Assembly (NCBI GenBank): GCA_051294905.1
Contig: CM119371.1
Coordinates: forward strand, 28,770,001-28,834,000
DNA length: 64,000 nucleotides
From: Botryllus schlosseri
Lineage: Eukaryota
Direction: 5' to 3'
Made by a program: the position numbers and the translations under genes. Positions 1,981 to 57,410 of the stretch are shown piece after piece (positions within the stretch are counted from its first letter, which is position 1; each line of letters begins with the position of its first letter). The notes beneath the pieces were generated by a model. The model was not told the DNA's origin. It searched no databases and worked only from the letters and a program-made list of their open reading frames with translations.

Positions 1981-3940
1981 GTAATGGTGAAGCGTCCGGC
2001 TTCTCGATCGGTAGGTTGTGGGTTCGATCCCCGGCCGGGTCAGACCAAAGACCTGATTGGTAACACTGGTATCCATGACTTCCCTGCTTGGCGCTCATGC
2101 ATTACTGGGATAGCATGGAGGGGTGGTGCATGACTTAGAAAGCCGTAGAGGCTATATCTGCACTTCCTTGTCCAGCGGCATATGCACTCATGGTATGCAT
2201 ATGCACAGATCGTGTGTATGTGTATCATGAGTCGGTGTATATGTCGCAAAAATCATCAAGGACAAAAATAAACTACGTCCTTTCCTTTCCTTATGGGAAC
2301 GCACTGTGATTTGATATGAATTGAACTTGATTTTTGATGTATTCATTTCTCATTCACAATTTCATTCAATTTCCAAGTTTTGCGAATTTAGTAATTCTAA
2401 TTCGAATCTAATCTAATTAGGAGAAAGCTGTGTAGCTCTAATTCTAATCCTAATCTAATTTGGAAATATTTCGTTGCTCTAATTCTAGTTCTAATCTAAT
2501 TTGAAAAAAACTGTGTTGCTCTAATTTTAATTCTAATCTAATTTGGAAAAAACTGTGTAGCTCTAATTCTAATCTAATTTAAAAAAGCTGAAAATTTTCT
2601 AGTTGTGCAAGTCTGCTTGAGCTCCATCTCGCATTGCGTAGAGATGAAGGTTTATGCTACTTGATGGGTGGTAATCTACTATTTTCTCTGAAAGAGCTCT
2701 TTTGCTCTTGAGCTACTCTCTCGTTTCGCCAGACAGCATTGTTGCGTCCCAATGCCAATCTCCATAACAATGAAAAATTCGAGGCTGATTGTGAGAGTTC
2801 TGGGGTCACGAGCGGAATAAACTTTATATTTTCGTAATCAGTGCAGAGTCAGCTTTCGATTGATACCCGTTTGACCAAATTTAATGCTCGGCAAGTCGGT
2901 CAAAAATTACCGTCAAATTGCCTGTAGCCAAATGGAAATTGTGACGTGAACCAATTTCACTGAGGCGTGAGATTTGCTTGTGTCGACACCATATAGGACA
3001 CTATGGTTTTACCATATCATCTCCAAATTTGTAGCTGAGAGTTGGATTTGTTGAGGATGTTGGATTGAAGAAGTCCGACATATGCTTTAAGAATCGATAA
3101 TATTATGGTGGCAACCAATGTATTGTGATATATGAAAAACCTTGCTCATCATTGTAATTTGCAGTTTCACAACGACATTCCGCCGCCCAGTATCACCAGA
3201 TACTGAGTCGCATATGATATGGCATTTTCAAATTTTCATGATATTCCTCGAATCAGTTTTCTAGACCGCTGAAAATATGTTGAGTTGTTCTACTTTCGCC
3301 TTTTCGAACAGCCAGTTGGATTTGTGTCAGACAAATTGAAATTATACGATATATATAGTCTACATCTAAAATCGAAATTGATAATTATTTATTAATTATT
3401 TAATTTTGTCTAAGCAAGAAAACGATCGGATTAATTCAATCTGGGCAATCACAATTTACCAAAATACTATTTTATATCTTTTTAATTAGAATTGTGTCAG
3501 TTAAATTCAAATAAGTCGGTATATATATTATATAGTCTGTATCTAGAAAAAAAAGCCTATCCTTTCATACAGTAGAAAACTGGACAATTTTTGTGCGGGA
3601 GGTTTTTGTTTAACCAGTCTTAACTGTTGTTAATTTTGAAATCAGGACACAAAAGTTCATCGTTTGTGACTACAGGACACACAAAATGTTGAATTTTTAT
3701 TCTAGTCATCATCCCTAATGTTCGATATTTACTGACTTGAGTGATTCTTTCCGTGGAAGTCCTTATTGCAAATTTCATTTTTTGATAGACATACTGGATA
3801 CTACGAGTCATCATCGTAGGTTTGTGATCTCCCTGGATTAGACCAAGAATATCTATCAATATCGTGACACGATATATAAATCGTGCAAACGATGCAGGTA
3901 GTTGCTAATCATCCGCTACAGTCTCGCTCATTGTGTCCAG

Positions 3941-18458: not shown

Positions 18459-19224
18459 CTCATATGAAACCAGTTTCAACTTTCAAATCTCTCATTTGGA
18501 GATTTGCTACAGCGACCGCGGGTGACTCATTTTGTCCGCGTTGGTGACCCCTGTAATAGAGACATTTAAATCACGAAGCTCGAAGAACATTTTCAAGAAT
18601 TAATTTAATCTCTCGAAAATACTCTATAACAGGAGTGGGCAAACTTTTGTGCTCGCGGGCCGCATTCAACATCTGAATCCATTCGCGGGCCGCAGCACTA
18701 TATAAAATTGGGATTATAAACCAAAACTAAATATTGGTGTTTGATTATATAGTGACGACATGGAGACAATATATATGCTTATTTAGAACAAAACAAACAT
18801 TGCTATTGATGATATCGTACACGCGTCAAAAACAGTGGCGAGATTTCATAGGCTGGTGTAGCTCAATAACCAATTTGTCAAAACTATAGAGATGATTGTC
18901 AGTTGTCCCGTGTCCCCCTTATCGTCATATCACAAAACGCAACCATGAAGCTAGCAAGCCTAACGAATAGTTTGATGGCATGGAAGGTTACGACTGTTTT
19001 AAATATGAAATTCAGATTAAATACAGAGCAATAATTAGGAATTGGATTGAGACAAGCTTCGCGCCTCCCTTCAGATGCTTTCACGCCCCTCAGTTTGAGA
19101 ACCACTTCCTTAGAATTATCATGGTGTAATATACTAAGAAAAAGTTTAATCAAGTCCCTGCAGTAGTGAGGCTAAGGAACTTTGGCGCCCGCCAATCCCA
19201 GAAGACCACGTCGCCTTAATTGTC

Positions 19225-19405
19225 ACGCCTACATTGCCACATCATCCGCCCATTGCCGCACCTATAGCACACCCATTGCCACACCTATAGGACGCCCCTT
19301 GCCACATCATCAGCCACGCCCATTGCTACACCATTTGATACGTCATCAGCCACGCGCATTGCCACATCACTCGCCTATATAACGCCCATTGCTACATCAT
19401 CATGA
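19225..19405. repeat. Subterminal iterated motif cccattgc(c/t)aca (mirror copy 33590-33770)
   Basis: About 7 imperfect copies at roughly 20-40 bp spacing, close to each terminus. Confidence 0.75.
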
Positions 19406-19651
19406 TTATGCGTACTGAGCTGTTTTTGAGAACATGAATTCTCGCGTAATACACTAAACGTTGAACTAGATTTCATAACGTCACCACAGAAGAATTAGGC
19501 AACTATCTTGCTCTAGGTTCTAGGTTCGATCCCTGTAGTCGCCGCATTTCATACGATTAAGCGCTTTTCATATCTCCTAACACTTTACTCAGTCTCATTG
19601 AAATAGCCTTGTATAGTGTACGAGTTCATTTTATTTCGTAAAAAGAGCATA

Positions 19652-20158
19652 TCAATGATATCGCTGATCGTTATTGCGTCGATTCGCGTTCTGAAATCCT
19701 CCAGGTCGGTTGATGTTTCGAGGTACACCGCTTTGCTGCCATCCGACGCCGCGATCCGAGTTCTTGCGTTCGATCTGGCCGTTTTGTTTGATGTAGCGAT
19801 CACTGGCTTGTAGTATATACGATACGAGCGGAAGGTCAGGATTAGGAACAACTACGCTGGGCGAATAGATGACAAATTCATCAGCCGGATTCAGAGGTTG
19901 ATAATGCTCGATCCCATCGCGAGTATACGTAACGACCAAACCTCCTTCATGCTTCAGAGTGGCTCGATATTTCTGAATGGTCCCACTTGTGGAATGTACA
20001 AAGAGTTGATCCGAGGTCAATTCTGCTCCATTCGAGGCTTCGATACGTAATTTTGTGATGTCATTAAAAAGATACAAGTCTTTTCTATAGGGCCCCTGGG
20101 GCAGAATAGTATCTCCACGGATTGCTAGACTCATTCTTTGAAAAGAAATATCATACAT
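19652..20158 (-). CDS. Orphan ORF2, left-arm copy (~160-180 aa, start codon uncertain)
   Basis: Intronless open frame directly downstream of and overlapping the BIR ORF. AATAAA follows on the minus strand at 19630-19635. Confidence 0.6.
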   Translation of the reverse strand: MYDISFQRMSLAIRGDTILPQGPYRKDLYLFNDITKLRIEASNGAELTSDQLFVHSTSGTIQKYRATLKHEGGLVVTYTRDGIEHYQPLNPADEFVIYSPSVVVPNPDLPLVSYILQASDRYIKQNGQIERKNSDRGVGWQQSGVPRNINRPGGFQNANRRNNDQRYH

Positions 20159-20732
20159 AAGTACAACAGTCATCACGCAATTCCACTTCACCATCAAATT
20201 TAGTCAAGCCTCTTCTTATATTAGGTGTCGCATAACAGACATTACGAATATATTGCAACCCCTTGCGCTTTATGAGAAAAGGACACGTAGGATAAAACTT
20301 TGCATGTTCGAGCCAGGGGTCATCGCACGGCAACCAATTTTGAAACAGCCCTCCGCATGAGAAACACTTTAAATGATCCTTATAGCCCAAATAGAACAAT
20401 CCGCAGTCTGCGAGCTCGGCTCCGGAGGTATTGATATTATCCGGCCACCGCATAAATGTGCTTAGTCTACGAGCATAGCGTACCATGTTATAGAAAACGG
20501 GATCATTCAATGGGGAGACAGTTACATCTCTATGCTTCGCATAGCATTCATAAATCTTTTCCCCTCTGTTATTTATCATAGCTTGGTACTGTTCAATGGG
20601 ACTCATCCGAGTTTCATCTTCGCTTATTTCTATGCTACTCGTGGTACCGATGCAAGCGCAGTTGAATGTAGCGTAATTTGTAGGATCCACACTACGCTTA
20701 GTTAGAGAATCGCTTTGATCAATGTTCGACAT
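20151..20732 (-). CDS. Single-BIR IAP-like protein, 193 aa, left-arm copy
   Basis: RLSTF..WP...LADCGLFYLGYKDHLKCFSCGGLFQNW...DDPWLEHAKFYPTCPFL, with the canonical CX2CX16HX6C pattern. No RING domain; intronless. Confidence 0.93.
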   Translation of the reverse strand: MSNIDQSDSLTKRSVDPTNYATFNCACIGTTSSIEISEDETRMSPIEQYQAMINNRGEKIYECYAKHRDVTVSPLNDPVFYNMVRYARRLSTFMRWPDNINTSGAELADCGLFYLGYKDHLKCFSCGGLFQNWLPCDDPWLEHAKFYPTCPFLIKRKGLQYIRNVCYATPNIRRGLTKFDGEVELRDDCCTYV

Positions 20733-22420
20733 TGCTATCCGAATTGATATACTCTCATGATCAGTATGCTTTATATAGATATTGAGCTATGCACCATCGA
20801 AAAATGTGCTTGGTACCAATCGAATGATAGGCCCACACACCTAATTTCGTAACTAACTACATAATCCCTAGTAACGTAGTAAGACGCATAACGGAATTTA
20901 CGCAAAATCGGTATTGCTCTGCGATAATTCCGATCACTATGTTTTGATAATGACGTGCTTCCGAGAAATAAATAACATTCATTTTACGTTAGATGATACT
21001 TTTCCTTGATATTCTATCATGTGTGTTTAGGACTAATGCAACATCACTATGTTTACGACATGTCTGATTTGAACACACTAATTTTGCGTATCACACCACA
21101 AACTGCGCAAGCCTTCAAAGTTGATAAGTAAACAAGTATTTGCACTCCATCAGAATACTAAAGTAGCTTTTCGCGTATATGTACCTGTAGCTAATACTAA
21201 AGTGCTTATGATTTCAGATTGCTTCAACTTCATGACATTTTCAGTATTAAACAGAAATATAGAACTAGAATACTAACTTTTATTCGTAAATAGCTACTTC
21301 TACCTTAATTTAATGGATTTATCTGAGATCATTGCTTTACTTAATCCCTCCAAAATGTGCATTGTACAAGTACCTCAGCATCGAAACCCTCTGGCTATAA
21401 CTATCTGGCGGTATAATTGCAGCAATACTCGAGTACTAATTTAAAAGTAGCTTAGGTATCTAAATGAGCTCTGAGTCGCTGTTATCTCGCATCTGACCAT
21501 GGAGTTAACACCGGTATTACCTTCGCTCACTGATGAAAAAGATGAAAGTTATTAAAGAAAGCAGATTTGTATGAAAACTCGTTAAATAGAAGTAAAAGTA
21601 GCCTTGAAACATAACTACTTACTGAAAAATCGTTACGTAGAAGTGGGGTTAGTCTACGAACATAAACACCTACTTACTTTTAATCTCAACTTGTACTTGT
21701 ATTCGTACTTTACCTTTACACGGCGTTTTTGTATAATGTATACTAATTTTATTAAAAATAAACCAAAAGGACAAATATAATTGATCAAATTCATTCATTT
21801 ATGCAAAAAATTGAGAGTCTTGTCGTGATGGTCCGTTTCGAAATGCAAGCGGATGAACTAGACCAAAAGTTTCGAAGATGCGTTTTATAATTGCTCTAGG
21901 TGTGAAATAGACATCGCACTCTTGCGGGGAAACAACATGAATTCAGTCTTCACACCACAGAAACACAGCCGCTTGGTTAACATCACAAAACCGCAATTGA
22001 ACTCAAGATTGTCATACACGGAATCGCTGTTAACGATGTCTGACTGCGGCGTTTCGACGAGTAACGAATTCTCGTATTTAGTATTGATTGTGACACATAG
22101 TCAAAACAGCGACAGTTTTCACAACCCGGTACATACATTGAACCAACTGATGTAAGGTGAAACACTACGTTCGCAGCAAAAAAAAAGTTTGCAGGGCATG
22201 ACCACCACCAACATATAGAGTAGTGAGTGAGTAATTAAACTACATACCCCGATTTTACTATATTCCGAGATCCGGATCACGATTCAAGTCTACCTGAGAA
22301 TCCGAACTACCCTGTGAAGTTGATATATCAAGTTGTGAACCGTGAAAGGGTTGTAATCTCGGTGAAATAGTGTGCGACACATTTTTCCACAAGTCGAATG
22401 CATGTCGGTTCATACTAAGA

Positions 22421-22625
22421 CCATTAGGAATTTGCACAATGACAGGTTATTGAAACCGATGCCAAAACTCAGTATAATAGATTGATATTGATCGCGTGTA
22501 TGTTTGACATATATGCAGCATCTTGGATCGGCGGTGGAGCACTGAATGGCACTGCAGAAGTCATCTACTCTCCTAAGCTTGGACTGATCTGGGCTATTGC
22601 GCCACTGTGTTACGGGTTTAGTGTT
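22421..22625 (+). pseudogene. SLC5A7: Captured fragment of a high-affinity choline transporter (SLC5A7/CHT1-like) gene: exon end, 73-bp intron, truncated exon
   Basis: Splicing gt(22446)..ag(22518) gives PLGICTMTASWIGGGALNGTAEVIYSPKLGLIWAIAPLCYGFSV, matching the CHT1 motif TMTATWVGGGYINGTAE as recalled from memory. Confidence 0.85.
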
Positions 22626-23044
22626 CAAGTACTTTATCTTTACACGACGTTTTTTGTAAAATGAATACTAATTTTATTAAAAAAATAAAAAATAAAAAAG
22701 AGCGAAAAATTACATTATATCCCGGAACGCAACAAGAAAAGTCGTATGAATTTGTAAACTACTTGTTCATGACATAATAATAATTCTACTTGTACACTTT
22801 TTCACATTTTATAACACTTTAAGTAATACTTAACAGTTTCAGTTTTAAATAAAATACGGAATATAAACTAATCGAAAAATTCGGTAACCAATTTCGCGTA
22901 GGCTATGCATGCATACAAATGAGGAAAGTTACATCAACGCGTGTTAAAGTAGCTGTATCGAGTTATCGAATGATTTTCTCCTTACATCAAAACAACTAGA
23001 ATGTATAACTAAATTAAAAAACGTATCTAAATGAGCTCCAGGGC

Positions 23045-24600
23045 ATTGTGATTATGCTGCATACCAAATTTCATCACACATTTCATGATGGAACAACTTT
23101 AAAACTAACGCATTTCTATAGCAACTTTTGCCTAAATCTGTTTTCGGTAGCGTGTACATATACATAGTCAGATTTAATGACAGAATTATCATGCTAATAT
23201 GTGACTCCTCACCTTGAAACTTGGTACGTAGTTGTAGGACATTGTGATTATGCAGCATACCAAATTTCCTCACGCATTTCATAATGGAACAACTTTAAAA
23301 CTAACGCGGTTCTACATCGACTTTTTGCGTACATCTGTTTTGCGTGGGGGGCGTAAAGCACGTACCTATACATGTCAACTTTAACAACGGAATTACCATG
23401 CTTAACATTGAATCCCAACTCGAAATTTGATACGTAGTTATAGGACATTATGGTAATGCACCATGCTAAATTTCATCACACATCTAATGATGGAGCACCT
23501 TTAAAACTAACGCAGTCGAATACCGACTTTTACGCATATCTGTTTTGCGCGAACATAGCATATACCTATACATAGTCAATTTTAATAGCGGAATTACCGT
23601 GTTAAACATTGAATTCCCACCTTGAAAGTTGGTACGCGGTTATAGGAGATTATAACAATGCACCATACCAAATCCCATCACACATTTCATGATGGAACAA
23701 CTTTAAAACTAACGCGGCTCTACATCGACTTTTTGCGTACATCTGTTTTGTGGGAGCGTATAGCACGTAGCCTACCCATACATAGCCAACTTTAATAACG
23801 GAATTACCATGCTTAACATTGAATCCCAACTCGAAACTTGATACGTAGTTATAGAACATTATGGCAATTCACCATGCTAAATTTCATCACACATCTAATG
23901 ATGGAACACCTTTGAAACTATCGCAGTCGAATACCAACTTTTACGCATATCTGTTTTTCGTGAACATAGCATATACCCATACATAGTCAATTTTAATAAC
24001 AGAATTAGCATGCTAAACATTAAATTCTCACCTTGAACGTTGATACGCGGTTGTAGGACATAATAACAATGCACCATACCAAATTTCGTCAGACATTTCA
24101 TGATGTAACACCTTTAAAACCAACGCAGTTCTATACAGACTTTTGGCTAAATCTGTTTTTCCGTAGCGTAGCACGTACCTATACATAGTCAACTTTAATA
24201 ACGGATTTAGCATGTTAATAATCGACTCCCCACCTTGAAACTCGGTATGCAGTTGTAAGACATTATGACAATGCACCATGTCAAATTTTGTTACGCATTT
24301 CATGATTGAACAACTTTAAAACTAACGCAGTTCCATACCGACTTTTGCGAGTGCGTAGCACGTACCTATATGCATACTCAACTTTCATAACGGAATTACC
24401 GAGCTAAACATTGAATGCGCAACTTGAAGATTGGTTCACAGGTGTAGGGCAGTATGACAATGGAACACATCAAATTTCATCACACATTTCATGATGGAAC
24501 ACCTTTAAAACTAACGCAGTTCTATACCAACTTCGCGTGAATCTGTTTGCGGGAGCGTAGCACGTACCTATGCGTGATCAACTTTAGTGATGGAATTACA
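23045..24600. repeat. Tandem array of ~190-210-bp diverged units (about 8), left arm
   Basis: The motif aaatttcatcacacatttcatgatggaacaactttaaaactaacgc recurs about every 200 bp. Confidence 0.9.
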
Positions 24601-25568
24601 TATGTAATTAAGTTTCAACACTTTTACAATGATTCGTCTTGCTTCCTATAACACCCCACTCGAGAAAATGCGTCGTAGGATATAGATGAAACTAGCACCA
24701 CTCATCAAGACCGCTGAAAACAGTACATTTCAACATTTAATAGCAGTAAATTTCTAGTAAAGTACAAGACGTGATGATTTCCGAGTGAGTTAAAAAGTAA
24801 GTATTGCAGGTATAGTTTACCTGAAAACCGAATACTCTGAAATAGAAGTAGATGCAGTGTAAATAGTTAATCACTTAATTAAGTTTAGTGCAAGCAGATA
24901 AAACCTATACTTGAGTAGTACAAAATGCACGAGTACTTCGCTATCGCCTCCCTCCACGTAATAAGTGTCTACGGTTTAAGACTGCTTTTACCGATACTCG
25001 TCGGTTTCAGTTTTAGATAGAATTCGGAAACCAAATAATTTCATAAACATAAGCTAATTTAATGAATTTACTCGAATGTACTATGCCGCGCTGATAAGAT
25101 TAATTATAATATACTTATCATGTTACAGCGATTTTTCTAGCGTAGAAATCTTTAAAATGTAGAAAGCAGGCCAAATGAAGATATTCGTTGAGCTGAATAA
25201 ACATAAAAAATACTCTAGACTACTTTATCGGTACTTTACAGTTACAGTTTTAGATAAAATTTGTCCCTTTCACCTATAATTACAACTCCTCGCTATCTAA
25301 ACATGTTTAGAATATATTATTTGCGATGATACGAACCCGTGAAGTACTCAAGTTGCTTTTCGTAGGATATAGATGAAACTGACAACACTCACCAAGACCA
25401 GTGATCCACTGAAAAAAGTACATTGTAGCAGTAAAGTCCTACTAAAGTACAAGAAGTAATGATTTCCCAGTTAGTTAAAAAGTAAGTATTGAGGTATAGT
25501 TTGCTCGAAAAAGCGAAAAACTCTGAAATAGAAGTAGATGCAGTGTAAATAGGTAATCACTTCATTAA

Positions 25569-25698
25569 GTATTCGTTTAGTTGTATAGACATAAAAAACA
25601 TTCCCGCGCGCTCTTAAACAAAACACTTCCTAACCCTACCACCTAATACTAAGACGCGCGCGGGAATGTTTTTTATGTCTATACAACTAAACGAATAC
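25569..25698. repeat. Perfect 43-bp-stem hairpin at the palindrome apex
   Basis: 25569-25611 is the exact reverse complement of 25656-25698. The loop includes cctaaccctaccacctaa. Confidence 0.95.
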
Positions 25699-27019
25699 CC
25701 ATCGGCCTGCTTACTACATTTTAAATATTCTCTCCACTATTGTGTATACAACAATATACTTCTCTTAGTAAGCAATTTCTCGTGAATTCCGAAGCACATT
25801 GACACGTGTTAACTTCTATATTCGGTGATAGTATCATTTTCATGTCTGATAATGTTACTTGTCAAGGTGATACAAACGTAAGCTCAAACTACTTTAAAAT
25901 TTAAAGTCTTACCAAATTTTATCTAACACTGAAACTGTCGAGTACCGATAAAGTACTCTAAAACCTAGTCACTTTTTACGTGGAGGGAGAACATAGCGAA
26001 GTACTTGTAAATTTGCAGTACTTAAGTATAGGTTTGGCCTGCTTGCGCTATACTTAATGAAGTGATTACCTATTTACACTGCATCTACTTCTATTTCAGA
26101 GTTTTTCGCTTTTTCGAGCAAACTATACCTCAATACTTACTTTTTAACTAACTGGGAAATCATTACTTCTTGTACTTTAGTAGGACTTTACTGCTACAAT
26201 GTACTTTTTTCAGTGGATCACTGGTCTTGGTGAGTGTTGTCAGTTTCATCTATATCCTACGAAAAGCAACTTGAGTACTTCACGGGTTCGTATCATCGCA
26301 AATAATATATTCTAAACATGTTTAGATAGCGAGGAGTTGTAATTATAGGTGAAAGGGACAAATTTTATCTAAAACTGTAACTGTAAAGTACCGATAAAGT
26401 AGTCTAGAGTATTTTTTATGTTTATTCAGCTCAACGAATATCTTCATTTGGCCTGCTTTCTACATTTTAAAGATTTCTACGCTAGAAAAATCGCTGTAAC
26501 ATGATAAGTATATTATAATTAATCTTATCAGCGCGGCATAGTACATTCGAGTAAATTCATTAAATTAGCTTATGTTTATGAAATTATTTGGTTTCCGAAT
26601 TCTATCTGAAACTGAAACCGACGAGTATCGGTAAAAGCAGTCTTAAACCGTAGACACTTATTACGTGGAGGGAGGCGATAGCGAAGTACTCGTGCATTTT
26701 GTACTACTCAAGTATAGGTTTTATCTGCTTGCACTAAACTTAATTAAGTGATTAACTATTTACACTGCATCTACTTCTATTTCAGAGTATTCGGTTTTCA
26801 GGTAAACTATACCTGCAATACTTACTTTTTAACTCACTCGGAAATCATCACGTCTTGTACTTTACTAGAAATTTACTGCTATTAAATGTTGAAATGTACT
26901 GTTTTCAGCGGTCTTGATGAGTGGTGCTAGTTTCATCTATATCCTACGACGCATTTTCTCGAGTGGGGTGTTATAGGAAGCAAGACGAATCATTGTAAAA
27001 GTGTTGAAACTTAATTACA

Positions 27020-29950
27020 TATGTAATTCCATCACTAAAGTTGATCACGCATAGGTACGTGCTACGCTCCCGCAAACAGATTCACGCGAAGTTGGTATAG
27101 AACTGCGTTAGTTTTAAAGGTGTTCCATCATGAAATGTGTGATGAAATTTGATGTGTTCCATTGTCATACTGCCCTACACCTGTGAACCAATCTTCAAGT
27201 TGCGCATTCAATGTTTAGCTCGGTAATTCCGTTATGAAAGTTGAGTATGCATATAGGTACGTGCTACGCACTCGCAAAAGTCGGTATGGAACTGCGTTAG
27301 TTTTAAAGTTGTTCAATCATGAAATGCGTAACAAAATTTGACATGGTGCATTGTCATAATGTCTTACAACTGCATACCGAGTTTCAAGGTGGGGAGTCGA
27401 TTATTAACATGCTAAATCCGTTATTAAAGTTGACTATGTATAGGTACGTGCTACGCTACGGAAAAACAGATTTAGCCAAAAGTCTGTATAGAACTGCGTA
27501 GGTTTTAAAGGTGTTACATCATGAAATGTCTGAAGAAATTTGGTATGGTGCATTGTTATTATGTCCTACAACCGCGTATCAACGTTCAAGGTGAGAATTT
27601 AATGTTTAGCATGCTAATTCTGTTATTAAAATTGACTATGTATGGGTATATGCTATGTTCACGAAACACAGATATGCGTAAAAGTTGGTATTCGACTGCG
27701 ATAGTTTCAAAGGTGTTCCATCATTAGATGTGTGATGAAATTTAGCATGGTGAATTGCCATAATGTTCTATAACTACGTATCAAGTTTCGAGTTGGGGTT
27801 CAATGTTAAGCATGGTAATTCCGTTATTAAAGTTGGCTACGTGCTATACGCTCCCACAAAACAGATGTACGCAAAAAGTCGATGTAGAGCCGCGTTAGTT
27901 TTAAAGTTGTTCCATCATGAAATGTGTGATGGGATTTGGTATGGTGCATTGTTATAATCTCCTATAACCGCGTACCAACTTTCAAGGTGGGAATTCAATG
28001 TTTAACACGGTAATTCTGCTATTAAAATTGACTATGTATAGGTATATGCTATGTTCGCGCAAAACAGATATGCGTAAAAGTCGGTATTCGACTGCGTTAG
28101 TTTTAAAGGTGCTCCATCATTAGATGTGTGATGAAATTTAGCATGGTGCATTACCATAATGTCCTACAACTACGTATCAAGTTTCGAGTTGGGATTCAAT
28201 GTTAAGCATGGTAATTCCGTTGTTAAAGTTGACTATGTATAGGTACGTGCTATACGCCCCCACGCAAAACAGATGTACGCAAAAAGTCGATGTAGAACCG
28301 CGTTAGTTTTAAAGTTGTTCCATTATGAAATGCGTGAAGAAATTTGGTATGCTGCATAATCACAATGTCCTACAACTACCTACCAAGTTCCAAGGTGAGG
28401 AGTCACATATTAGCATGATAATTCTGTTATTAAATCTGACTATGTATATGTACACACTACCGAAAACAGATTTAGGCAAAAGTTGCTATAGAACTGCGTT
28501 AGTTTTAAAGTTGTTCCATCATGAAATGTGTGATGAAATTTGGTATGCAGCATAATCACAATGCCCTGGAGCTCATTCAGATACGTTTTTTAATTTAGTT
28601 ATACATTCTAGTTGTTTTGATGTAAGGAGAAAATCATTCGATAACTCGATACAGCTACTTTAACACGCGTTGATGTAACTTTCCTCATTTGTATGCATGC
28701 ATAGCCTACGCGAAATTGGTTACCGAATTTTTCGATTAGTTTATATTCCGTATTTTATTTAAAACTAAGTCGATTATTAACATGCTAAATCCGTTATTAA
28801 AGTTGACTATGTATAGGTACGTGCTACGCTACGGAAAAACAGATTTAGCCAAAAGTCTGCATAGAACTGCGTTGGTTTTAAAGGTGTTACATCATGAAAT
28901 GTCTGACGAAATTTGGTATGGTGCATTGTTATTATGTCCTACAACCGCGTATCAACGTTCAAGGTGAGAATTTAATGTTTAGCATGCTAATTCTGTTATT
29001 AAAATTGACTATGTATGGGTATATGCTATGTTCACGAAAAACAGATATGCGTAAAAGTTGGTATTCGACTGCGATAGTTTCAAAGGTGTTCCATCATTAG
29101 ATGTGTGATGAAATTTAGCATGGTGGATTGCCATAATGTTCTATAACTACGTATCAAGTTTCGAGTTGGGATTCAATGTTAAGCATGGTAATTCCGTTAT
29201 TAAAGTTGGCTATGTATGGGTAGGCTACGTGCTATACGCTCCCACAAAACAGATGTACGCAAAAAGTCGATGTAGAGCCGCGTTAGTTTTAAAGTTGTTC
29301 CATCATGAAATGTGTGATGGGATTTGGTATGGTGCATTGTTATAATCTCCTATAACCGCGTACCAACTTTCAAGGTGGGAATTCAATGTTTAACACGGTA
29401 ATTCCGCTACTAAAATTGACTATGTATAGGTATATGCTATGTTCGCGCAAAACAGATATGCGTAAAAGTCGGTATTCGACTGCGTTAGTTTTAAAGGTGC
29501 TCCATCATTAGATGTGTGATGAAATTTAGCATGGTGCATTACCATAATGTCCTACAACTACGTATCAAATTTCGAGTTGGGATTCAATGTTAAGCATGGT
29601 AATTCCGTTGTTAAAGTTGACATGTATAGGTACGTGCTATACGCCCCCCACGCAAAACAGATGTACGCAAAAAGTCGATGTAGAACCGCGTTAGTTTTAA
29701 AGTCGTTCCATTATGAAATGCGTGAGGAAATTTGGTATGCTGCATAATCACAATGTCCTACAACTACGTACCAAGTTTCAAGGTGAGGAGTCACATATTA
29801 GCATGATAATTCTGTCATTAAATCTGACTATGTATATGTACACGCTACCGAAAACAGATTTAGGCAAAAGTTGCTATAGAACTGCGTTAGTTTTAAAGTT
29901 GTTCCATCATGAAATGTGTGATGAAATTTGGTATGCAGCATAATCACAAT
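27020..29950. repeat. Right-arm ~200-bp array (about 14 units), enlarged by a 1.37-kb tandem duplication
   Basis: 27395-28767 is repeated from 28768 to ~30155. The first copy lacks 15 nt present in the second copy and in the left arm. Confidence 0.9.
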
Positions 29951-30369
29951 GCCCTGGAGCTCATTTAGATACGTTTTTTAATTTAGTTATACATTCTAGT
30001 TGTTTTGATGTAAGGAGAAAATCATTCGATAACTCGATACAGCTACTTTAACACGCGTTGATGTAACTTTCCTCATTTGTATGCATGCATAGCCTACGCG
30101 AAATTGGTTACCGAATTTTTCGATTAGTTTATATTCCGTATTTTATTTAAAACTGAAACTGTTAAGTATTACTTAAAGTGTTATAAAATGTGAAAAAGTG
30201 TACAAGTAGAAATATTATTATGTCATGAACAAGTAGTTTACAAATTCATACGTTTTTTCTTGTTGCGTTCCGGGATATAATGTAATTTTTCGCTCTTTTT
30301 TATTTTTTATTTTTTTAATAAAATTAGTATTCATTTTACAAAAAACGTCGTGTAAAGATAAAGTACTTG

Positions 30370-30574
30370 AACACTAAACCCGTAACACAGTGGCGCAATA
30401 GCCCAGATCAGTCCAAGCTTAGGAGAGTAGATGACTTCTGCAGTGCCATTCAGTGCTCCACCGCCGATCCAAGATGCTGCATATATGTCAAACATACACG
30501 CGATCAATATCAATCTATTATACTGAGTTTTGGCATCGGTTTCAATAACCTGTCATTGTGCAAATTCCTAATGG
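30370..30574 (-). pseudogene. SLC5A7: Mirror copy of the SLC5A7-like fragment
   Basis: Reverse complement of 22421-22625. Confidence 0.85.
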
Positions 30575-32217
30575 TCTTAGTATGAACCGACATGCATTCG
30601 ACTTGTGGAAAAATGTGTCGCACACTATTTCACCGAGATTACAACCCTTTCACGGTTCACAACTTGATATATCAACTTCACAGGGTAGTTCGGATTCTCA
30701 GGTAGACTTGAATCGTGATCCGGATCTCGGAATATAGTAAAATCGGGGTATGTAGTTTAATTACTCACTCACTACTCTATATGTTGGTGGTGGTCATACC
30801 CTGCAAACTTTTTTTTTGCTGCGAACGTAGTGTTTCACCTTACATCAGTTGGTTCAATGTATGTACCGGGTTGTGAAAACTGTCGCTGTTTTGACTATGT
30901 GTCACAATCAATACTAAATACGAGAATTCGTTACTCGTCGAAACGCCGCAGTCAGACATCGTTAACAGCGATTCCGTGTATGACAATCTTGAGTTCAATT
31001 GCGGTTTTGTGATGTTAACCAAGCGGCTGTGTTTCTGTGGTGTGAAGACTGAATTCATGTTGTTTCCCCGCAAGAGTGCGATGTCTATTTCACACCTAGA
31101 GCAATTATAAAACGCATCTTCGAAACTTTTGATCTAGTTCATCCGCTTGCATTTCGAAACGGACCATCACGACAAGACTCTCAATTTTTTGCATAAATGA
31201 ATGAATTTGATCAATTATATTTGTCCTTTTGGTTTATTTGTAATAAAATTAGTATACATTATACAAAAACGCCGTGTAAAGGTAAAGTACGAATACAAGT
31301 ACAAGTTGAGATTAAAAGTAAGTAGGTGTTTATGTTCGTAGACTAACCCCACTTCTACGTAACGATTTTTCAGTAAGTAGTTATGTTTCAAGGCTACTTT
31401 TACTTCTATTTAACGAGTTTTCATACAAATCTGCTTTCTTTAATAACTTTCATCTTTTTCATCAGTGAGCGAAGGTAATACCGGTGTTAACTCCATGGTC
31501 AGATGCGAGATAACAGCGACTCAGAGCTCATTTAGATACCTAAGCTACTTTTAAATTAGTACTCGAGTATTGCTGCAATTATACCGCCAGATAGTTATAG
31601 CCAGAGGGTTTCGATGCTGAGGTACTTGTACAATGCACATTTTGGAGAGATTAAGTAAAGCAATGCTCTCAGATAAATCCATTAAATTAAGGTAGAAGTA
31701 GCTATTTACGAATAAAAGTTAGTATTCTAGTTCTATATTTCTGTTTAATACTGAAAATGTCATGAAGTTGAAGCAATCTGAAATCATAAGCACTTTAGTA
31801 TTAGCTACAGGTACATATACGCGAAAAGCTACTTTAGTATTCTGATGGAGTGCAAATACTTGTTTACTTATCAACTTTGAAGGCTTGCGCAGTTTGTGGT
31901 GTGATACGCAAAATTAGTGTGTTCAAATCAGACATGTCGTAAACATAGTGATGTTGCATTAGTCCTAAACACACATGATAGAATATCAAGGAAAAGTATC
32001 ATCTAACGTATAATGAATGTTATTTATTTCTCGGAAGCACGTCATTATCAAAACATAGTGATCGGAATTATCGCAGAGCAATACCGATTTTGCGTAAATT
32101 CCGTTATGCGTCTTACTACGTTACTAGGGATTATGTAGTTAGTTACGAAATTAGGTGTGTGGGCCTATCATTCGATTGGTACCAAGCACATTTTTCGATG
32201 GTGCATAGCTCAATATC

Positions 32218-32253
32218 TATATAAAGCATACTGATCATGAGAGTATATCAATT
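32218..32253 (+). promoter_or_regulatory. TATA box plus Inr-like motif upstream of the BIR ORF (mirror 20742-20777)
   Basis: tatataaa at 32218-32225, tcaatt 30 nt later at 32248-32253, ATG at 32263. Confidence 0.55.
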
Positions 32254-32262
32254 CGGATAGCA

Positions 32263-32844
32263 ATGTCGAACATTGATCAAAGCGATTCTCTAACTAAGCG
32301 TAGTGTGGATCCTACAAATTACGCTACATTCAACTGCGCTTGCATCGGTACCACGAGTAGCATAGAAATAAGCGAAGATGAAACTCGGATGAGTCCCATT
32401 GAACAGTACCAAGCTATGATAAATAACAGAGGGGAAAAGATTTATGAATGCTATGCGAAGCATGGAGATGTAACTGTCTCCCCATTGAATGATCCCGTTT
32501 TCTATAACATGGTACGCTATGCTCGTAGACTAAGCACATTTATGCGGTGGCCGGATAATATCAATACCTCCGGAGCCGAGCTCGCAGACTGCGGATTGTT
32601 CTATTTGGGCTATAAGGATCATTTAAAGTGTTTCTCATGCGGAGGGCTGTTTCAAAATTGGTTGCCGTGCGATGACCCCTGGCTCGAACATGCAAAGTTT
32701 TATCCTACGTGTCCTTTTCTCATAAAGCGCAAGGGGTTGCAATATATTCGTAATGTCTGTTATGCGACACCTAATATAAGAAGAGGCTTGACTAAATTTG
32801 ATGGTGAAGTGGAATTGCGTGATGACTGTTGTACTTATGTATGA
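32263..32844 (+). CDS. Single-BIR IAP-like protein, 193 aa, right-arm copy
   Basis: Same protein as the left copy except HGDV versus HRDV. Confidence 0.93.
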   Translation: MSNIDQSDSLTKRSVDPTNYATFNCACIGTTSSIEISEDETRMSPIEQYQAMINNRGEKIYECYAKHGDVTVSPLNDPVFYNMVRYARRLSTFMRWPDNINTSGAELADCGLFYLGYKDHLKCFSCGGLFQNWLPCDDPWLEHAKFYPTCPFLIKRKGLQYIRNVCYATPNIRRGLTKFDGEVELRDDCCTYV

Positions 32845-33343
32845 TATTTCTTTTCAAAGAATGAGTCTAGCAATCCGTGGAGATACTATTCTGCCCCAGG
32901 GGCCCTATAGAAAAGACTTGTATCTTTTTAATGACATCACAAAATTACGTATCGAAGCCTCGAATGGAGCAGAATTGACCTCGGATCAAATCTTTGTACA
33001 TTCCACAAGTGGGACCATTCAGAAATATCGAGCCACTCTGAAGCATGAAGGAGGTTTGGTCGTTACGTATACTCGCGATGGGATCGAGCATTATCAACCT
33101 CTGAATCCGGCTGATGAATTTGTCATCTATTCGCCCAGCGTAGTTGTTCCTAATCCTGACCTTCCGCTCGTATCGTATATACTACAAGCCAGTGATCGCT
33201 ACATCAAACAAAACGGCCAGATCGAACGCAAGAACTCGGATCGCGGCGTCGGATGGCAGCAAAGCGGTGTACCTCGAAACATCAACCGACCTGGAGGATT
33301 TCAGAACGCGAATCGACGCAATAACGATCAGCGATATCATTGA
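32837..33343 (+). CDS. Orphan ORF2, right-arm copy (possible starts ATG 32801, 32837 or 32861)
   Basis: Overlaps the BIR stop (ATGTATGA at 32837-32844). AATAAA at 33360-33365. Differs from the left copy at DQIFV versus DQLFV. Confidence 0.6.
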   Translation: MYDISFQRMSLAIRGDTILPQGPYRKDLYLFNDITKLRIEASNGAELTSDQIFVHSTSGTIQKYRATLKHEGGLVVTYTRDGIEHYQPLNPADEFVIYSPSVVVPNPDLPLVSYILQASDRYIKQNGQIERKNSDRGVGWQQSGVPRNINRPGGFQNANRRNNDQRYH

Positions 33344-36300
33344 TATGCTCTTTTTACGAAATAAAATGAACTCGTACACTATACAAGGCTATTTCAATGA
33401 GACTGAGTAAAGTGTTAGGAGATATGAAAAGCGCTTAATCGTATGAAATGCGGCGACTACAGGGATCGAACCTAGAACCTAGAGCAAGATAGTTGCCTAA
33501 TTCTTCTGTGGTGACGTTATGAAATCTAGTTCAACGTTTAGTGTATTACGCGAGAATTCATGTTCTCAAAAACAGCTCAGTACGCATAATCATGATGATG
33601 TAGCAATGGGCGTTATATAGGCGAGTGATGTGGCAATGCGCGTGGCTGATGACGTATCAAATGATGTAGCAATGGGCGTGGCTGATGATGTGGCAAGGGG
33701 CGTCCTATAGGTGTGGCAATGGGTGTGCTATAGGTGCGGCAATGGGCGGATGATGTGGCAATGTAGGCGTGACAATTAAGGCGACGTGGTCTTCTGGGAT
33801 TGGCGGGCGCCAAAGTTCCTTAGCCTCACTACTCCCTGCATTAATTCGATTTTTGGTACGCATTTTATCAATATTTTAATAAGTTTCTTTAGACTCTCGC
33901 GGGCCGCACAGAACGGTGTTGCGGGCCGTAGTTTGCCCACCCCTGCTCTATAATCTATCTTGGTTTACCTTACGAAATACTTTTGAGTCACTTTCGAGTA
34001 GCCTACGCTCCCCACCCTATTAGGGAGTTTGGGGTGCGGCAGTTAAAGACCTGGTAAGAATGCAAATCGTTGGGTGCGATAAATCATCCCCTATAAGGTT
34101 GGGCAATGGGTACATTATGAATTAACAAGCGAATGACGCATGATGTAGAAAGTTGATATCTCATTAGGCCTTTTCATCGCAATCCATATATTGTCTGCCA
34201 ATATATCTTCTAAAATTATGGTCCTAAGAAACAAAATGAATGTAATCGTGAGTAATCGTGATTCCTTTTCCAATGTAATCGTAATCGTAATCGACTGCTT
34301 CCTGATTTTGCTGTAATCGTAATCGCAATCGATTACATTCATGAAGTAATCACCCCATGTCTATGGTTCACACACAGAGAACGAACGTGAACCTCACGTT
34401 CACACCATCCCTAATAGTTATATAACGTGTATTCAAACTTTCTTCGCGTTTCGCGCGATTTATTGCCACATACTATCTTGATATCAGCATGGGTAGCCAT
34501 AGGCTACTAGCCTAGTCTTCCCCCAATGAAAATACGCATAATTTATAGGGATAGGCATTTCGGCATCCGGCATTACCACGTCACGACATACTAAGACGTT
34601 GACAACGACGTTTCAGCCAACATGCGGCTCTTCGAAATGTACTGCGAAAAAGCTCGGCGGCGAGGGAACCTTGGCTGGAAAGGACCGAGTCATGTTGGCC
34701 GAAACCGATATATAATATTGAATTTTCCCTTGTCCATAGACGCTTGAATGGCTGGCGCCTAATGTTCTTGTCCTGGCAATCTGAGCCCCACATTATAATT
34801 GCCACCCATAGAGATAAATCATCCACTCCGTGAAGAAATATAACTTCTTAGTCAACACCACAGCAGTATTATTATAAAGTGGATTTTAGCCAACGCAAGA
34901 GGATTCCCCGTAAAAATCTAGAATTAGCAGTTTCTAGTCCGGTGATGTAACTCTTTTCTGGATCCCAAATTAATAATGCTCTATTACACTCGAAGAGTTT
35001 TCGGGTGCCTCTTTTCAAGAGTTATCGGTACACTAATTACCATTTAGGTGAGAACCTCTCCTGTGCACAGAACTCTCATGATGACATGCACAGCACACGA
35101 GATGTCGATTATCGAGACCGATACTTGGAACTTTACAGATTATCGATATCGGCCTATGATGGCTGATATCGCGGCCGATATTTCATGTTAAAAAAAATCA
35201 AAAACTAAACTTGCAGGTCAAACCGCTGAGAATACATGCTGAGCTTCCTGCATTACAACTTACTTCTACTGGACTGGGCTGCATTTCTGCATCACGTTTT
35301 GAATTTTTGGGTAGCCTAAATTTCAATGAATGTGCAAAATTCAGCAACAATTCTTTCCGATTTCAGTTTTGCTTGCTTGTTGTATGCATACAGCTTTTTG
35401 TGGCATGTACAAGTGCCATCTTGCCCAATATATAATATTTTTGGAGGAAATGGTTCTCTACTCCTTCCATAATATCGGCCTATCGGTTATCGGCGATGTG
35501 AGTGTGTCGATAATAGGTATCGGTATCGGCCTGCAAAATCAATATCGGTCGACCTCTATTGCTCACTGTTATTAAGCCCATTTGCATGGCCGATTGGGTC
35601 AGCTTCGAAGCTGACTCGTCAATCCGACTCCCTCATTTTCGAAAAAGGGAAAAAGGCAAATTGCTACCACCATCTTGAGCCAAATCCGTTTCGCGCAGAC
35701 TGTGAGGCGGCTTGAGCAATAGCAGTGCAATAGCAGAGCAATAGCTCCCGACTCTACCATTTCTACCAACATTTATAAAAATAAAATCACGAACTCGGCA
35801 CCCATCTGGTTGAAAAGAAGAGCCATATCATTGCATGATACTGATGTTCCAACGATATGCACGTGGTCTTATTTGCTAAGCGTGACGGATTATGAAGCGA
35901 GTATAGCAAATTAGCAAACCATATAACTTGCACAGCTCAGCATCAGGGAAATACGCAAGATGTGCTACGTTATTCTGGAAATGCGAAAACTATTCGGATT
36001 ATTGAACTTGCGTAGCATAATCCCCTAGCTTAATCCCAGACGGCTGTATCACTAGATTGGTTATCTATAGTATCACTTGAGCTGTGACAACTTTTGCCTA
36101 TGAAATTGTAAACTCAATCGAATTTTCAGCACTTCGGTCAGCCGTCACATGACGTCACTCCAACACGACTTAGCTCCGAGACGACCTCACCATGTAAATA
36201 TGGGCTTATTTGGGTTTGCCAAATTTTGGAAATCTGAAAAGTGGACACTTTTTCAAATTTTTCAGACTTGCAATCCCGAATAAATGGTAAAAATGTTTCC

Positions 36301-41982: not shown

Positions 41983-43370
41983 GGTTCCATACCAATGCCG
42001 AGAAAACCATGACCGAGAATGTAAATTACCGAGAATTTACTTCACCGAGAATGGCTATTACCGAGAATGGACAAGATCGAGAATGGCCATTACCGAGAAT
42101 AGACCAGTGTTGGGATGACTCGAGTCACCTTTTTCGTATGACTTGACTTGACTCGAGACGCTTGGCTAAAATGACTTGACTTGACTTGACTCGGCGTATC
42201 AGAAATGTGGATTGACTCGTGACTCGAAGCAAAATTCACGAGTCAATTTCAAGTCATCAAGTAATCGGTGTCGATAAAATTCAGTGTATCTTGCATATGG
42301 TCGGATTGTTCTCGAAATGCTGGTGTAACCTGTTAGAGCGACCAATCATTCAATGATCGTGCGTTTTACTGAGCCTCCATTGTTCTCTCACACATAAATT
42401 GACCGCAAACGAAGTGATCCAAACTTACAGCATACGTTATCGTAAACTAGTATAGTAAAATAATTCAATAAAATAATGTCTATTTCTATTCTCTGTTCTT
42501 ACCTTAACTAAACCTCTTGTTTTATTGAAATCGAATTCGAATATAGCTTCTCCTCAACCATTGGCGCCCCCTCGAATTGTATCATATCAATTTGTAAATG
42601 GGTAATGTTACATGTAGTACATCTTATCAATTCGTTTCTCTATTCTCTATTTTGGTCGGTAACTATAAACTGTGCAATTACTTCCGTAGTTCAGCAGTGC
42701 TATACGTATATGTGAGCGAAACAGCGCCTTCTTGCATGTATATTTAACTATATATTCGTTCATTGGTTCAGACTCAATGACCACTAAATCTGTAATTCAG
42801 ACAGCTAGCAAAATGCAATGACGTAATCATGCCTCATGCTTCAAAAAGGCAACTTGACTTGAATTGTGACTTGACTCGTGACTTGACTTGACTTGACTCG
42901 ACTTGACTCGAGTCACCTCCAAAAATCGAGTGACTTGACTTGACTCGAGTCACCTTCGAAAATCGAATGACTTGACTTGACTCGAGTCAAAATGTGCAAT
43001 GACTCGAAATGAATCGTGACTCGAAGGTAGTGACTTGATCCCAACACTGGAATAGACACCATCGAGAATGGATATTACCGAGAATGGACAATGCCAAGAA
43101 TCTAACTTATTGGGACGGACGATGTCGGGATTGATACCCGAAAATCGACATAGAATGTGGCAACGCCGTGATGCACATACGCACGACCTGTACATATGCA
43201 TAACATGACTGCATTGCATATATTGCATTCTCGGCAATGTTCATTCTCGGTGGTGTCCATTCTCGGTAATGTCCATTTTTTGTGATGTCCATTCTCGGTA
43301 ATGTCCATTCTCGGTGGTGTCCATTCTCGGTAATGACATTCTCGGTAATGTTTTTTACGGTATTGACCGG
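41983..43370. mobile_element. Foldback-like MITE whose arms are 20-bp ccgagaatggac tandem repeats
   Basis: Direct-orientation units at 41995-42100 and 43050-43100, inverted units at 43225-43350. It sits inside a cagg.ccgtaac-family copy. Confidence 0.6.
42105..43049 (+). mobile_element. hAT-type MITE with gactt/gactc arrays
   Basis: TIR cagtgttgggat / atcccaacactg. Perfect TSD gaatagac at 42097-42104 and 43050-43057. Confidence 0.9.
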
Positions 43371-44697: not shown

Positions 44698-45909
44698 TCA
44701 GGTTATCCTTTTGATGCCAGCATGTATATCCATATGACGTTTGAGGGTACTGTTCAGAGTAAATTCTTTCCCACATACATCACATCCATGATTTTTGACG
44801 TCAGCATGCATATTCATATGACGTCTGAGGTTGCTCTTCCAAGTAAATGCACTCCCACATAAATCGCATTCATAATGTTTGATGCCAGCATGCATATGCA
44901 TATGAGCTTTGAACTCCTTCTTCGTAGTAAATTTTTTTCCACAAATGTCACATCCATGATTTTTGATGCCGGCATGCATATCCATATGACGCCTGTGGTC
45001 AGACTTTTGACCAAATGACTTCCCGCATATATCACACTTATGACTTTTGATACCAGCATGTATATCCATATGACAGTCCAAAAATGTTTTGCGAGTAAAT
45101 TCTTTCCCACAAATATCACATTTATGATTTTTGATGCCAGTGTGTACAATCATATGAGCCTTAAGATTACTCTTTTTAGAAAATTCCTTCGCACATATAA
45201 CACACTTATGGATTATTATTCCAACATGCATATTCATATGGCATCTGAGGGTGGTCTTACGAGTAAATTTTTTTCCACATATATCGCATTTATAATGTTT
45301 GATGCCAGCATGCATAAGCATATGACCGTTCAGCTCATTCTTCGTAGTAAATTGTTTTCCACAAATAACACATCCATGATTTTTGATGCCGGCATGCACA
45401 TCCATATGACGCCTGTGGTCGGACTTTTGACCAAATGACTTCCCGCATATATCACACTTATGACTTTTGATGCCAGCATGTAAATCCAAATGACGCTCCA
45501 AAAATCTTTTCTGAGTATATTCTTTCCCACATATATCACACTTATGTATTTTTATTTCAAAATGCATATTCATATGACATCTGAAGTTTTTCTTCCAAGT
45601 AAATGTTTTCCCACATACATCGCATTTATGATGTTTGATGCCAGCATGCATAAGCATATGACCCTTCAGCTCATTTTGCCTGGTAAATTTTTTTCCACAA
45701 GTGTCACAGCCATGATTTTTGATACCGGCATGCATATCCATATGACGCTTGTGCCCAGACTTTCGACTAAATGATTTCCCACATATATCACACTTATGAC
45801 TTGTGATGCCAGCATGTAAATCCATATGACGCTCCAAAAATCTTTTCTTGGTAAATTCCTTCCCACATATATCACATTCATGATCTTTTACATCTGCATG
45901 TACATCCAT
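44698..45909 (-). CDS. Array of 14 C2H2 zinc fingers, possibly a pseudogene
   Basis: 403-aa ORF of 28-aa CX2CX12HX3H units with HAGIK(N/S/H)H linkers. A decayed finger with a stop lies upstream and frameshifted fingers continue downstream to ~44470. Confidence 0.85.
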   Translation of the reverse strand: MDVHADVKDHECDICGKEFTKKRFLERHMDLHAGITSHKCDICGKSFSRKSGHKRHMDMHAGIKNHGCDTCGKKFTRQNELKGHMLMHAGIKHHKCDVCGKTFTWKKNFRCHMNMHFEIKIHKCDICGKEYTQKRFLERHLDLHAGIKSHKCDICGKSFGQKSDHRRHMDVHAGIKNHGCVICGKQFTTKNELNGHMLMHAGIKHYKCDICGKKFTRKTTLRCHMNMHVGIIIHKCVICAKEFSKKSNLKAHMIVHTGIKNHKCDICGKEFTRKTFLDCHMDIHAGIKSHKCDICGKSFGQKSDHRRHMDMHAGIKNHGCDICGKKFTTKKEFKAHMHMHAGIKHYECDLCGSAFTWKSNLRRHMNMHADVKNHGCDVCGKEFTLNSTLKRHMDIHAGIKRIT

Positions 45910-47807
45910 ATGAAGCTTGAGGTTACCGTTTTGAGAGATCTATTCGCCAGAAATATCGGATTGACGATGAATACTCGACTCTATGCAATTTTTTTTTTGT
46001 GAAATTGATCATCACAGGACACTATCACAGAACTCTTATCATTTATGACAATAGTGATAATATTAGGAACTAAATTAAAGAAAGAGCATCATTAGATTGT
46101 AGACCGGGAGTATCAAACTCAACCGCCGGTCCGCGACTAATTTTCTGGCGGTTCGTCAGGTATTTTAAAATTATATACCTTAATTTTAAGATGCAAAATG
46201 TGAAGGCTTGTCATTTGATCAAATAAATAAAACATCACCATCAACATATTCAGAACTTGGTGATGTAATATTAACAAAGGTGGTCAAAGTAGTCAAGAAA
46301 GCTGCTCAAGTAGGAGTAGAAGTAGCGACGAAAAAATCTACCCAAGTATGAGTAGAAGTACTTCATCCACCTAAAACTACTTGAAGTAGAAGTAGAATTG
46401 ACTGACTTTAAATTGACTCAAGTAAGCAAGTAGTTTTGAAAAAAGTCTTTCGTTCTCATAGAGTGTCAAAAGCTGCAAATTGAGCTATGCGGTAGGTGCA
46501 GAGAGCTGGATTCGTATTGATGCATCCCAGGAGGTAGCAATTTTCGACAGAATAAGCATTCTTTCGCTTTATAAGATGCAAATTATAGTATTGATATGAA
46601 AATACGATACTAACCCTTGGTTTACTATAAGACCCCGTTTTAGAAAATATCATGGCATGGCGCCCTACCCCATATTATAAGGCCCCAAGTTTAGACGAAG
46701 AGCAATACGGATAAGTTGTATCGGATACGGTTTCAACACTTCGAGCGATTAGTTTTAGTATACAAATATTGTGGATCGTAAAATTTATAATTGGTGTAGA
46801 TTTATTTTCGGAAAATAGAGGCATTACTACACTTGCTTTCATGCTTCAACATTGTTCTGCAGACAAAAGAACTGAGAGTAATTAGAACTCAAAGTATGAT
46901 ACTCCGAGTATCATACTCGGAATTGAAAATGAAATACAAATACCACTTCTGAAAAGCGGAAAATATATTTCATGTCTTTTGTCCATAAAGCTTCAAAGGT
47001 GGTTTGCTAAAATAGGTGTAACGTTCCAAAAAGTCAGGTCACGTCATGGGCTGCTAGATAACGATATAATAGGTAATTGCTAGATTGCGAAATGGTAGTT
47101 TCAAACGTTATGGTGGGCCATATTTACTGTGATGAAATATTTGATATGGGAGACAATGCGGTGTGAGCGGAACCATAAACAATCCGGTACCTAAATTATA
47201 TTCACTTTACCTATCGTGAAAACATATTTGTCACTCCATAACTACTGTACGCGAAGCCAAACAAAATTTATGGACTTTACATGACTTTTTCCAGTATTAA
47301 ATGTTGGAACTCCGTGAAAACAGCCCCAAAATTCCTCAGGCTATCTTTCGTATTGGCCATTGGTCGATTAAACTACTTCTACTTGACAAACTGAAAATAG
47401 CGAAAAGTAAATTAAGTAAATCACAAACTATTACGAAGTAGAAGTAGAAGTAAAGAAAATCAGATCTACTTGAGTAAGTACCAGAAGTAGAGGACAACTA
47501 CTTGAATACTTCCAAAAACTAGAAGTACTTCGTTACTAACCACCTCTGAATATTAAGCGTGGAAACATGTTCCATTTAACTTTAAGTTCAAGCCATCTTC
47601 TTTGATGACATTCGAGCTACAAGTACGAGCAGACTCGCTAAACCTCGCAGTTTGCACGATCATTCATTTTCAATTCATTCACTTTGTGGCTAACCCCGTG
47701 TCGCTGTTACCAGGTGTTTTCGTGCGGCGTATTGCATTCCTAGTACGTCTGGTGGTATTGGGGAATGCGCGAGGTAGCACTACAAGTTGCTTTGTGCGGT
47801 GTAGAGA

Positions 47808-57257: not shown

Positions 57258-57410
57258 ATTCACGATGTATGCACAAAATCGCTCTTTGGTTTCGACCGAA
57301 CAATACGATGGCACTTTCCACTTCCCATTTCTGAACTGGTATCTGAAAGGAAAGTGCCATCGTATTGTTCGGTCGAAACCAAAGAGCGATTTTGTGCATA
57401 CATCGTGAAT
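57258..57410. repeat. Perfect 62-bp-stem hairpin
   Basis: 57258-57319 is the exact reverse complement of 57349-57410, with a 29-nt loop. Confidence 0.95.

Follow-up and report, generated by a model that had tools for sequence, protein, structure and literature searches.

The palindrome carried by the analysed stretch of Botryllus schlosseri DNA (64,000 nucleotides of contig CM119371.1, positions 28,770,001 to 28,834,000, here called the window, whose own numbering is used throughout) turns around a 44-nt loop at 25612–25655. This loop probably represents the fold-back apex of a whole element family; the perfect 43-bp stem around it would mainly be a product of that fold-back, and the break of symmetry at the foot of the stem a secondary, probably copy-specific deletion in one arm. 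A sequence-only reading had proposed that the hairpin triggered the template switch that created the left arm. Fold-back or template switching at the centre does appear the likely origin of the palindrome, whereas the notion of a 43-bp hairpin that was already there and set off the switch at 25572/26050 is not supported, in view of the copy inferred in another sample (run X5), a rare allele mirrored in the stem and the old duplicated sequence of the right stem arm.

The palindrome occupies 19162–33833 (14,672 bp), starts with (AGT)2, ends with (ACT)2 and lies between two exact copies of a 6-bp target-site duplication (TSD; 19156–19161, identical to 33834–33839). Mavericks are described as having (AGT)2//(ACT)2 or (AG)3//(CT)3 ends and a perfect 6-bp TSD (PMC8097293), and the element shows both the end motif and the TSD of this Maverick/Polinton type. 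Its left arm outside the deletion joint discussed below (19162–25568) is the mirror of 26054–33833 minus 1373 bp of satellite, and the right arm beyond the 'spacer' extends from 26050 to 33833; comparison of the arms shows 12 mismatches in 3679 positions of the outer part and 1 in 1345 of the inner part. Each arm holds just two stop-to-stop frames of at least 120 aa. One encodes a BIR domain (IAP-like; 32209–32844 on the + strand, Pfam BIR E = 1.7e-18, mirrored at 20151–20786 on the − strand), and the other is a 160-aa frame with no Pfam family (32861–33343, + strand, mirrored within 19652–20203 on the − strand), for which a single homologue, a near-identical fragment (95%), was found among seven candidates. 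Some 85 bp inside each terminus lies a 12/23-bp tandem repeat (19247–19332 and 33665–33748).

At about 15 kb the element resembles Mavericks/Polintons in size as well as in its ends and TSD (PMC8097293, PMC4196379). Its inverted repeat, however, is 6.4–8.2 kb long and fills the element, compared with 100–1000 bp in described Polintons (PMC4196379); there are thus no terminal inverted repeats of 100–1000 bp flanking a unique core, as there would be in an autonomous Maverick. The set of protein-primed PolB, integrase, ATPase, protease and capsid is likewise not encoded. Since a Pfam search of the frames of at least 120 aa recovered no polymerase, integrase or capsid frame in the element, it is not an autonomous Maverick, and it is best envisaged as a helper-dependent Maverick/Polinton derivative in which one end region may have been copied back on itself. 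In the Polinton/Maverick literature, as covered by titles and the openings of abstracts and with subscription papers and Repbase mostly outside that coverage, no wholly palindromic non-autonomous Maverick was found.

At the centre of the element, 25569–25611 pairs with 25656–25698 without a mismatch in 43 bp, and the large inverted repeat reaches its inward limit at 25572/26050. Both features had been read off the sequence before and hold up, and shuffling excludes chance as the source of the stem: when the right half was shuffled 30 times, perfect stems with loops not exceeding 200 nt reached a maximum of 9–13 bp, and the folding of the hairpin (z = −19.2) was equalled in none of 200 shuffles. 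Inward of a 1-nt bulge the stem gains a further 5 bp (25612–25616/25650–25654), which reduces the loop to 33 nt, and the apex as a whole is an interrupted inverted repeat of 13 bp plus the 1-nt bulge around 33 nt, roughly 60 nt overall. The 44-nt loop by itself does not fold. At its right edge, position 25655, which is the position of the bulge, a variant 2 nt shorter occurs in run X1 (20 contigs), and the loop contig of X5 is likewise 2 nt shorter.

The two symmetries share 4 nt, 25569–25572, which pair both with 25695–25698 and with 26050–26053. Aligned about the loop, 25300–25611 matches the reverse complement of 25656–26322 at every aligned position, interrupted once by a 355-bp gap. The halves on either side of the loop measure 6450 bp and 8178 bp, and their difference of 1728 bp is exactly 355 + 1373, the 1373-bp gap lying inside a satellite. 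Because the loop-centred alignment is free of mismatches and the difference between the halves is fully explained, the stem and the long arms are a single inverted repeat with one gap near the centre, and the 44-nt loop is the true centre of symmetry of the palindrome. The lack of mismatches in the stem is what the divergence of the arms leads one to expect (probability 0.87 at 12/3679).

The right arm carries a satellite of ~202 bp (27056–29935; left-arm mirror 23060–24599), in which 27395–28766 is a 97.6% duplicate of 28768–30154, while the left arm has a single copy. Sixteen sites and 3 gaps distinguish the right-arm duplicates from each other; the left arm agrees with the outer copy at 12 of these 16 sites and departs from it at 7 of 1387 positions. 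The satellite duplicate would accordingly be older than the split of the arms, and the left arm would have lost one of the two copies. The joint of the 355-bp gap bears a 4-nt microhomology at 25569–25572, which allows five equivalent placements of the gap, and by chance 2.4% of joints placed at random in the region would show microhomology of at least 4 nt. Both deletions fall in the left arm, merely a one-in-two coincidence. A deletion by slippage across the hairpin was considered and rejected, as the hairpin itself would have gone. One-sided erosion of palindromes is an already known pattern: yeast inverted junctions undergo one-sided secondary deletion through microhomology, and 3 of 92 later lost part of one arm so that the spacer widened (PMC10766183, PMC10766186), and in mouse cells long palindromes are reported to gain stability through asymmetric deletions (PMC8701086).

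The history of the right side is recorded in an old direct duplication of two units (25664–26949, + strand; 25664–26262 versus 26407–26949, ~80%). That a diverged repeat of the right arm continues into the spacer had been recognised earlier, and its presence stands (25909–26262 versus 26592–26949, 80%); it begins at 25664, already within the right arm of the stem, and not near 25930 as formerly placed. The duplicate thus spans the outer edge of the stem, with 28 of 35 columns identical inside it (against 26407–26441) and 34 of 43 just outside, and the score of the stem arm against its duplicate was matched by none of 2000 random 81-mers from outside. Since this duplicate carries on across the edge of the stem, the right stem arm (25656–25698) and the 'spacer' (25699–26049, right-arm sequence without a mirror in the left arm) form one old strand, which supports the previous view of the right arm plus spacer as the original and of the left side as the copy. 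The absence of a spacer mirror from the left arm is accordingly read as a deletion and not an insertion.

A further line of evidence comes from alleles. Of 96 differences between the window and the short-read runs, 40 were compared (11 rows computed, the others judged by eye, with a cut-off of at least 84% of depth), and at five of them, all in mirrored sequence, the other letter makes up at least 84% of depth in all four runs. At four of these five sites the rare letter of the window is mirrored in the left arm, namely 25678, which lies in the stem, 26459, 26745 and 26882; the rare letter at 26608 is unmirrored and constitutes the sole mismatch of the inner arms. These mirrored alleles show the arms to have been made identical recently in the lineage of the window copy, up to the loop. 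Because the stem mirrors the rare 25678 allele in its left arm (25569–25611, the innermost 43 bp of the left arm), it was copied or corrected jointly with the long arms, later than the origin of these alleles, and it does not behave as an older, separate hairpin.

The apex stretch is present in 19 of 24 runs among those listed, from 10 studies, one run possibly being the source sample. Four of the 19 (X1, X5, X15 and X18) were compared over 25520–27060, all as short-read contigs, which testify to presence and not to absence and whose depth is not copy number. At k = 31 the structure of the window forces contig breaks at 25582, 25656/25685 and 25698/25699, and arms symmetric to the loop would abolish the last of these. 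In X5 the contigs 25582–25685 and 25656–25909 display the first two forced breaks and lack the third; the former, which contains the loop, has ends symmetric about the hairpin axis. Depth in this run is 3.5 for the loop and 7.91 for the stem plus spacer, with arm contigs at 6.41 and 9.37. The pattern suggests a copy that possesses the hairpin without the breakpoint of the window, such that the symmetry outward from the hairpin base, interrupted by 355 bp in the window copy, would be continuous in X5. In X15 one contig (25590–25909) likewise runs unbroken over 25698/25699, with a left end at 25590 that suits neither model neatly. Depth over the spacer resembles that of the arms in X5, X15 and X18; the loop is uncovered in X18, and X1, with 14,190 contigs, is too fragmented at the apex, so the clean pattern of a hairpin without the breakpoint is seen in one of the four runs. 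The contig evidence comprises 32 of 14,346 pieces, from which graph cleaning may have dropped true branches. No strand-changing joint was found among 15 of 19 joints.

Long loose ends in X15 at 25847, 25898, 26061 and 26132, the first two of which are shared by X5, show that other family members diverge at other points near the centre. At 26957–26958 the contigs of all four runs depart from the window with the same loose end, which suggests a sister subfamily, or a parent, that has the inner duplicated unit without the satellite side.

Taken in sequence, the favoured course of events would be as follows. A nascent strand would have folded back on the GC-rich interrupted repeat of ~13 bp around the loop and the arm would have been copied outward from there, the 43-bp stem being the first 43 bp of this copy. 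As the homology of the old duplicate begins at 25664, immediately outside 25604–25663, the 13-bp interrupted repeat within that interval would be the only candidate seed, and only these innermost ~13 bp of the stem could have served as such. Subsequently the left arm would have been shortened by 355 bp, at a distance of 43 bp from the loop and with a 4-nt microhomology on either side of the lost stretch, a step whose geometry is directly visible, and additionally by 1373 bp between the satellite duplicates. The loss may have followed the last equalisation of the arms or reflects a forward jump of the polymerase during the same copying, two timings that are indistinguishable here. The hairpin would coincide with the symmetry break for the sole reason that the deletion ended shortly before reaching the apex.

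The competing scenario, in which a parental 43-bp hairpin stalled the polymerase, a switch at its base to 26050–26053 via the 4-nt microhomology made the left arm, and hairpin plus spacer are the fixed centre of the family, is unlikely. It would account for the position of the break, precisely at the foot of the stem and with 4 nt of overlap; the hairpin has great stability (−51.3 kcal/mol), short repeats are established sites of fold-back priming (PMC7999016), and short hairpins are reported to increase the yield of subgenomic AAV genomes (PMC9463555). Fold-back priming, however, extends outward from the hairpin, as the same source on priming (PMC7999016) describes it, and cannot alone skip 351 nt, since the sequence from 25699 onward would then have been mirrored. 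The comparison of apexes among copies, which the sequence-only reading had put forward as a check, yielded in the X5 contigs a hairpin without the 25698/25699 break, the reverse of what a trigger would need, and the arm-like depth of the spacer in three runs speaks against a fixed centre. The stem, moreover, mirrors an allele that is rare in all four runs, its right arm is ordinary old arm sequence, and the yeast inverted junctions ascribed to ODIRA have seed repeats of 2–14 bp, not 43, with repeat plus spacer of 40–80 bp (PMC10766183).

Two readings would dissociate the hairpin or the spacer from the fold-back altogether. That the 355 bp were inserted into the right arm and duplicated 4 nt of target, or that the 130-bp hairpin is an inserted MITE, as the earlier interpretation had entertained, is highly improbable. 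Identical 4 nt do stand on both sides of a 351-nt stretch, as a target duplication would give, but the old duplicate passes both edges of this stretch and largely refutes the insertion. Nor does the hairpin look like an independent unit, since the same duplicate runs through its right, outer edge; no direct repeat of 2–10 nt flanks 25569–25698, no second copy of hairpin or loop exists within the window, none of the 48 metagenome loci with the stem motif proved related by BLAST, and the loop motif had no match in viral contigs. Both candidates were hence rejected, on account of the duplicate crossing the edges and the missing TSD around the hairpin. It is also quite unlikely that the left joint, or the asymmetry itself, arose through misassembly of a palindrome that is hard to sequence, the real copy being symmetric as far as the loop. 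The window's left joint is carried by no contig among those listed, an absence that is uninformative with these contigs, and the depth of the bin 25572–25623 derives fully from the loop contig (2.83 expected and 2.83 seen in X5; 9.28 and 9.27 in X15), but a joint private to one copy is not expected in other samples. Against an error also stand the 12 differences in 3679 sites between the arms, the intact TSD and the clean microhomology at the joint. A fold-back at the loop followed by one-sided deletion remains the preferred account of the apex.

The architecture invites comparison with several known systems. Drosophila foldback (FB) elements share long inverted arms with tandem repeats and a variable centre, but differ in their longer target duplications and other ends, where the present element bears those of a Maverick, with a TSD of 6 bp. 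The subgenomic molecules of phi29 are reportedly palindromic. This phage offers the likeness of a protein-primed linear replicon that gives rise to end-derived subgenomes by template switching of its polymerase (PMC4974454), in contrast to the element in being unintegrated. AAV snapback genomes, too, consist of one end region of a linear DNA genome made self-complementary, and their asymmetric forms leave a central loop (PMC9463555). In the AAV system template switching is given as the explanation of symmetric snapback genomes, while for asymmetric ones the authors had to invoke end joining; AAV relies on hairpin ITRs and Rep, whereas the element carries ends of Maverick type, lies integrated with a TSD around it and is a member of a high-copy family. 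With ODIRA in yeast it would share a short interrupted repeat (~13 bp within ~60 nt in the element) followed by a one-arm microhomology deletion, but ODIRA acts at chromosomal forks whereas here the palindrome is a mobile unit, and the yeast cases with deletions, as far as described, lost the original apex that the element keeps as a 43-bp stem (PMC10766183, PMC10766186). Palindromes of ~15 kb in mouse cells similarly suffer one-sided deletions near the centre; these break the junction itself, unlike the element, which retains the loop and 43 bp of stem (PMC8701086).

Outside the element the window contains several other repeats and frames. An unrelated perfect stem of 62 bp with a 29-nt loop lies at 57258–57410, and the direct repetition of 57315–57342 at 57232–57259 fits a local inversion by template switching. 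On the − strand, 44698–45939 is a stop-free frame of 413 aa with an array of C2H2 zinc fingers of 84-bp period. Two dispersed direct repeats are present, one at 3088–3564 and 62753–63232 (90–96%) and one at 42117–43054 and 60590–61564 (93–96% in aligned pieces); the latter, which has short internal tandem repeats and stems, is probably another mobile element.

As a single feature, the apex shows palindrome erosion of an already known type, although it occurs within an unusual family of elements, whose fold-back point is now pinned to a 44-nt loop. Polintons have been proposed to replicate via a single-stranded racket, and Maverick replication has hitherto been such a proposed model (PMC4196379). 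Against this background one may tentatively imagine, as a possibility less probable than its converse, that the loop serves permanently as a turning point: the element would persist as a half-genome, protein-primed at its Maverick end and with a hairpin at the other, whose second arm is repeatedly regenerated by a helper polymerase. Repeated fold-back at the loop would account for the rare alleles mirrored in both arms (four of five sites) and for the presence of both deletions in one arm, the newly copied one. Since this is a high-copy family in which apex and arm alleles can be read in each copy, the choice between re-copying of arms, folded repair and unchanged inheritance becomes testable. 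If repeated regeneration proved true, the family would be a natural snap-back satellite that records the replication intermediates of Mavericks.
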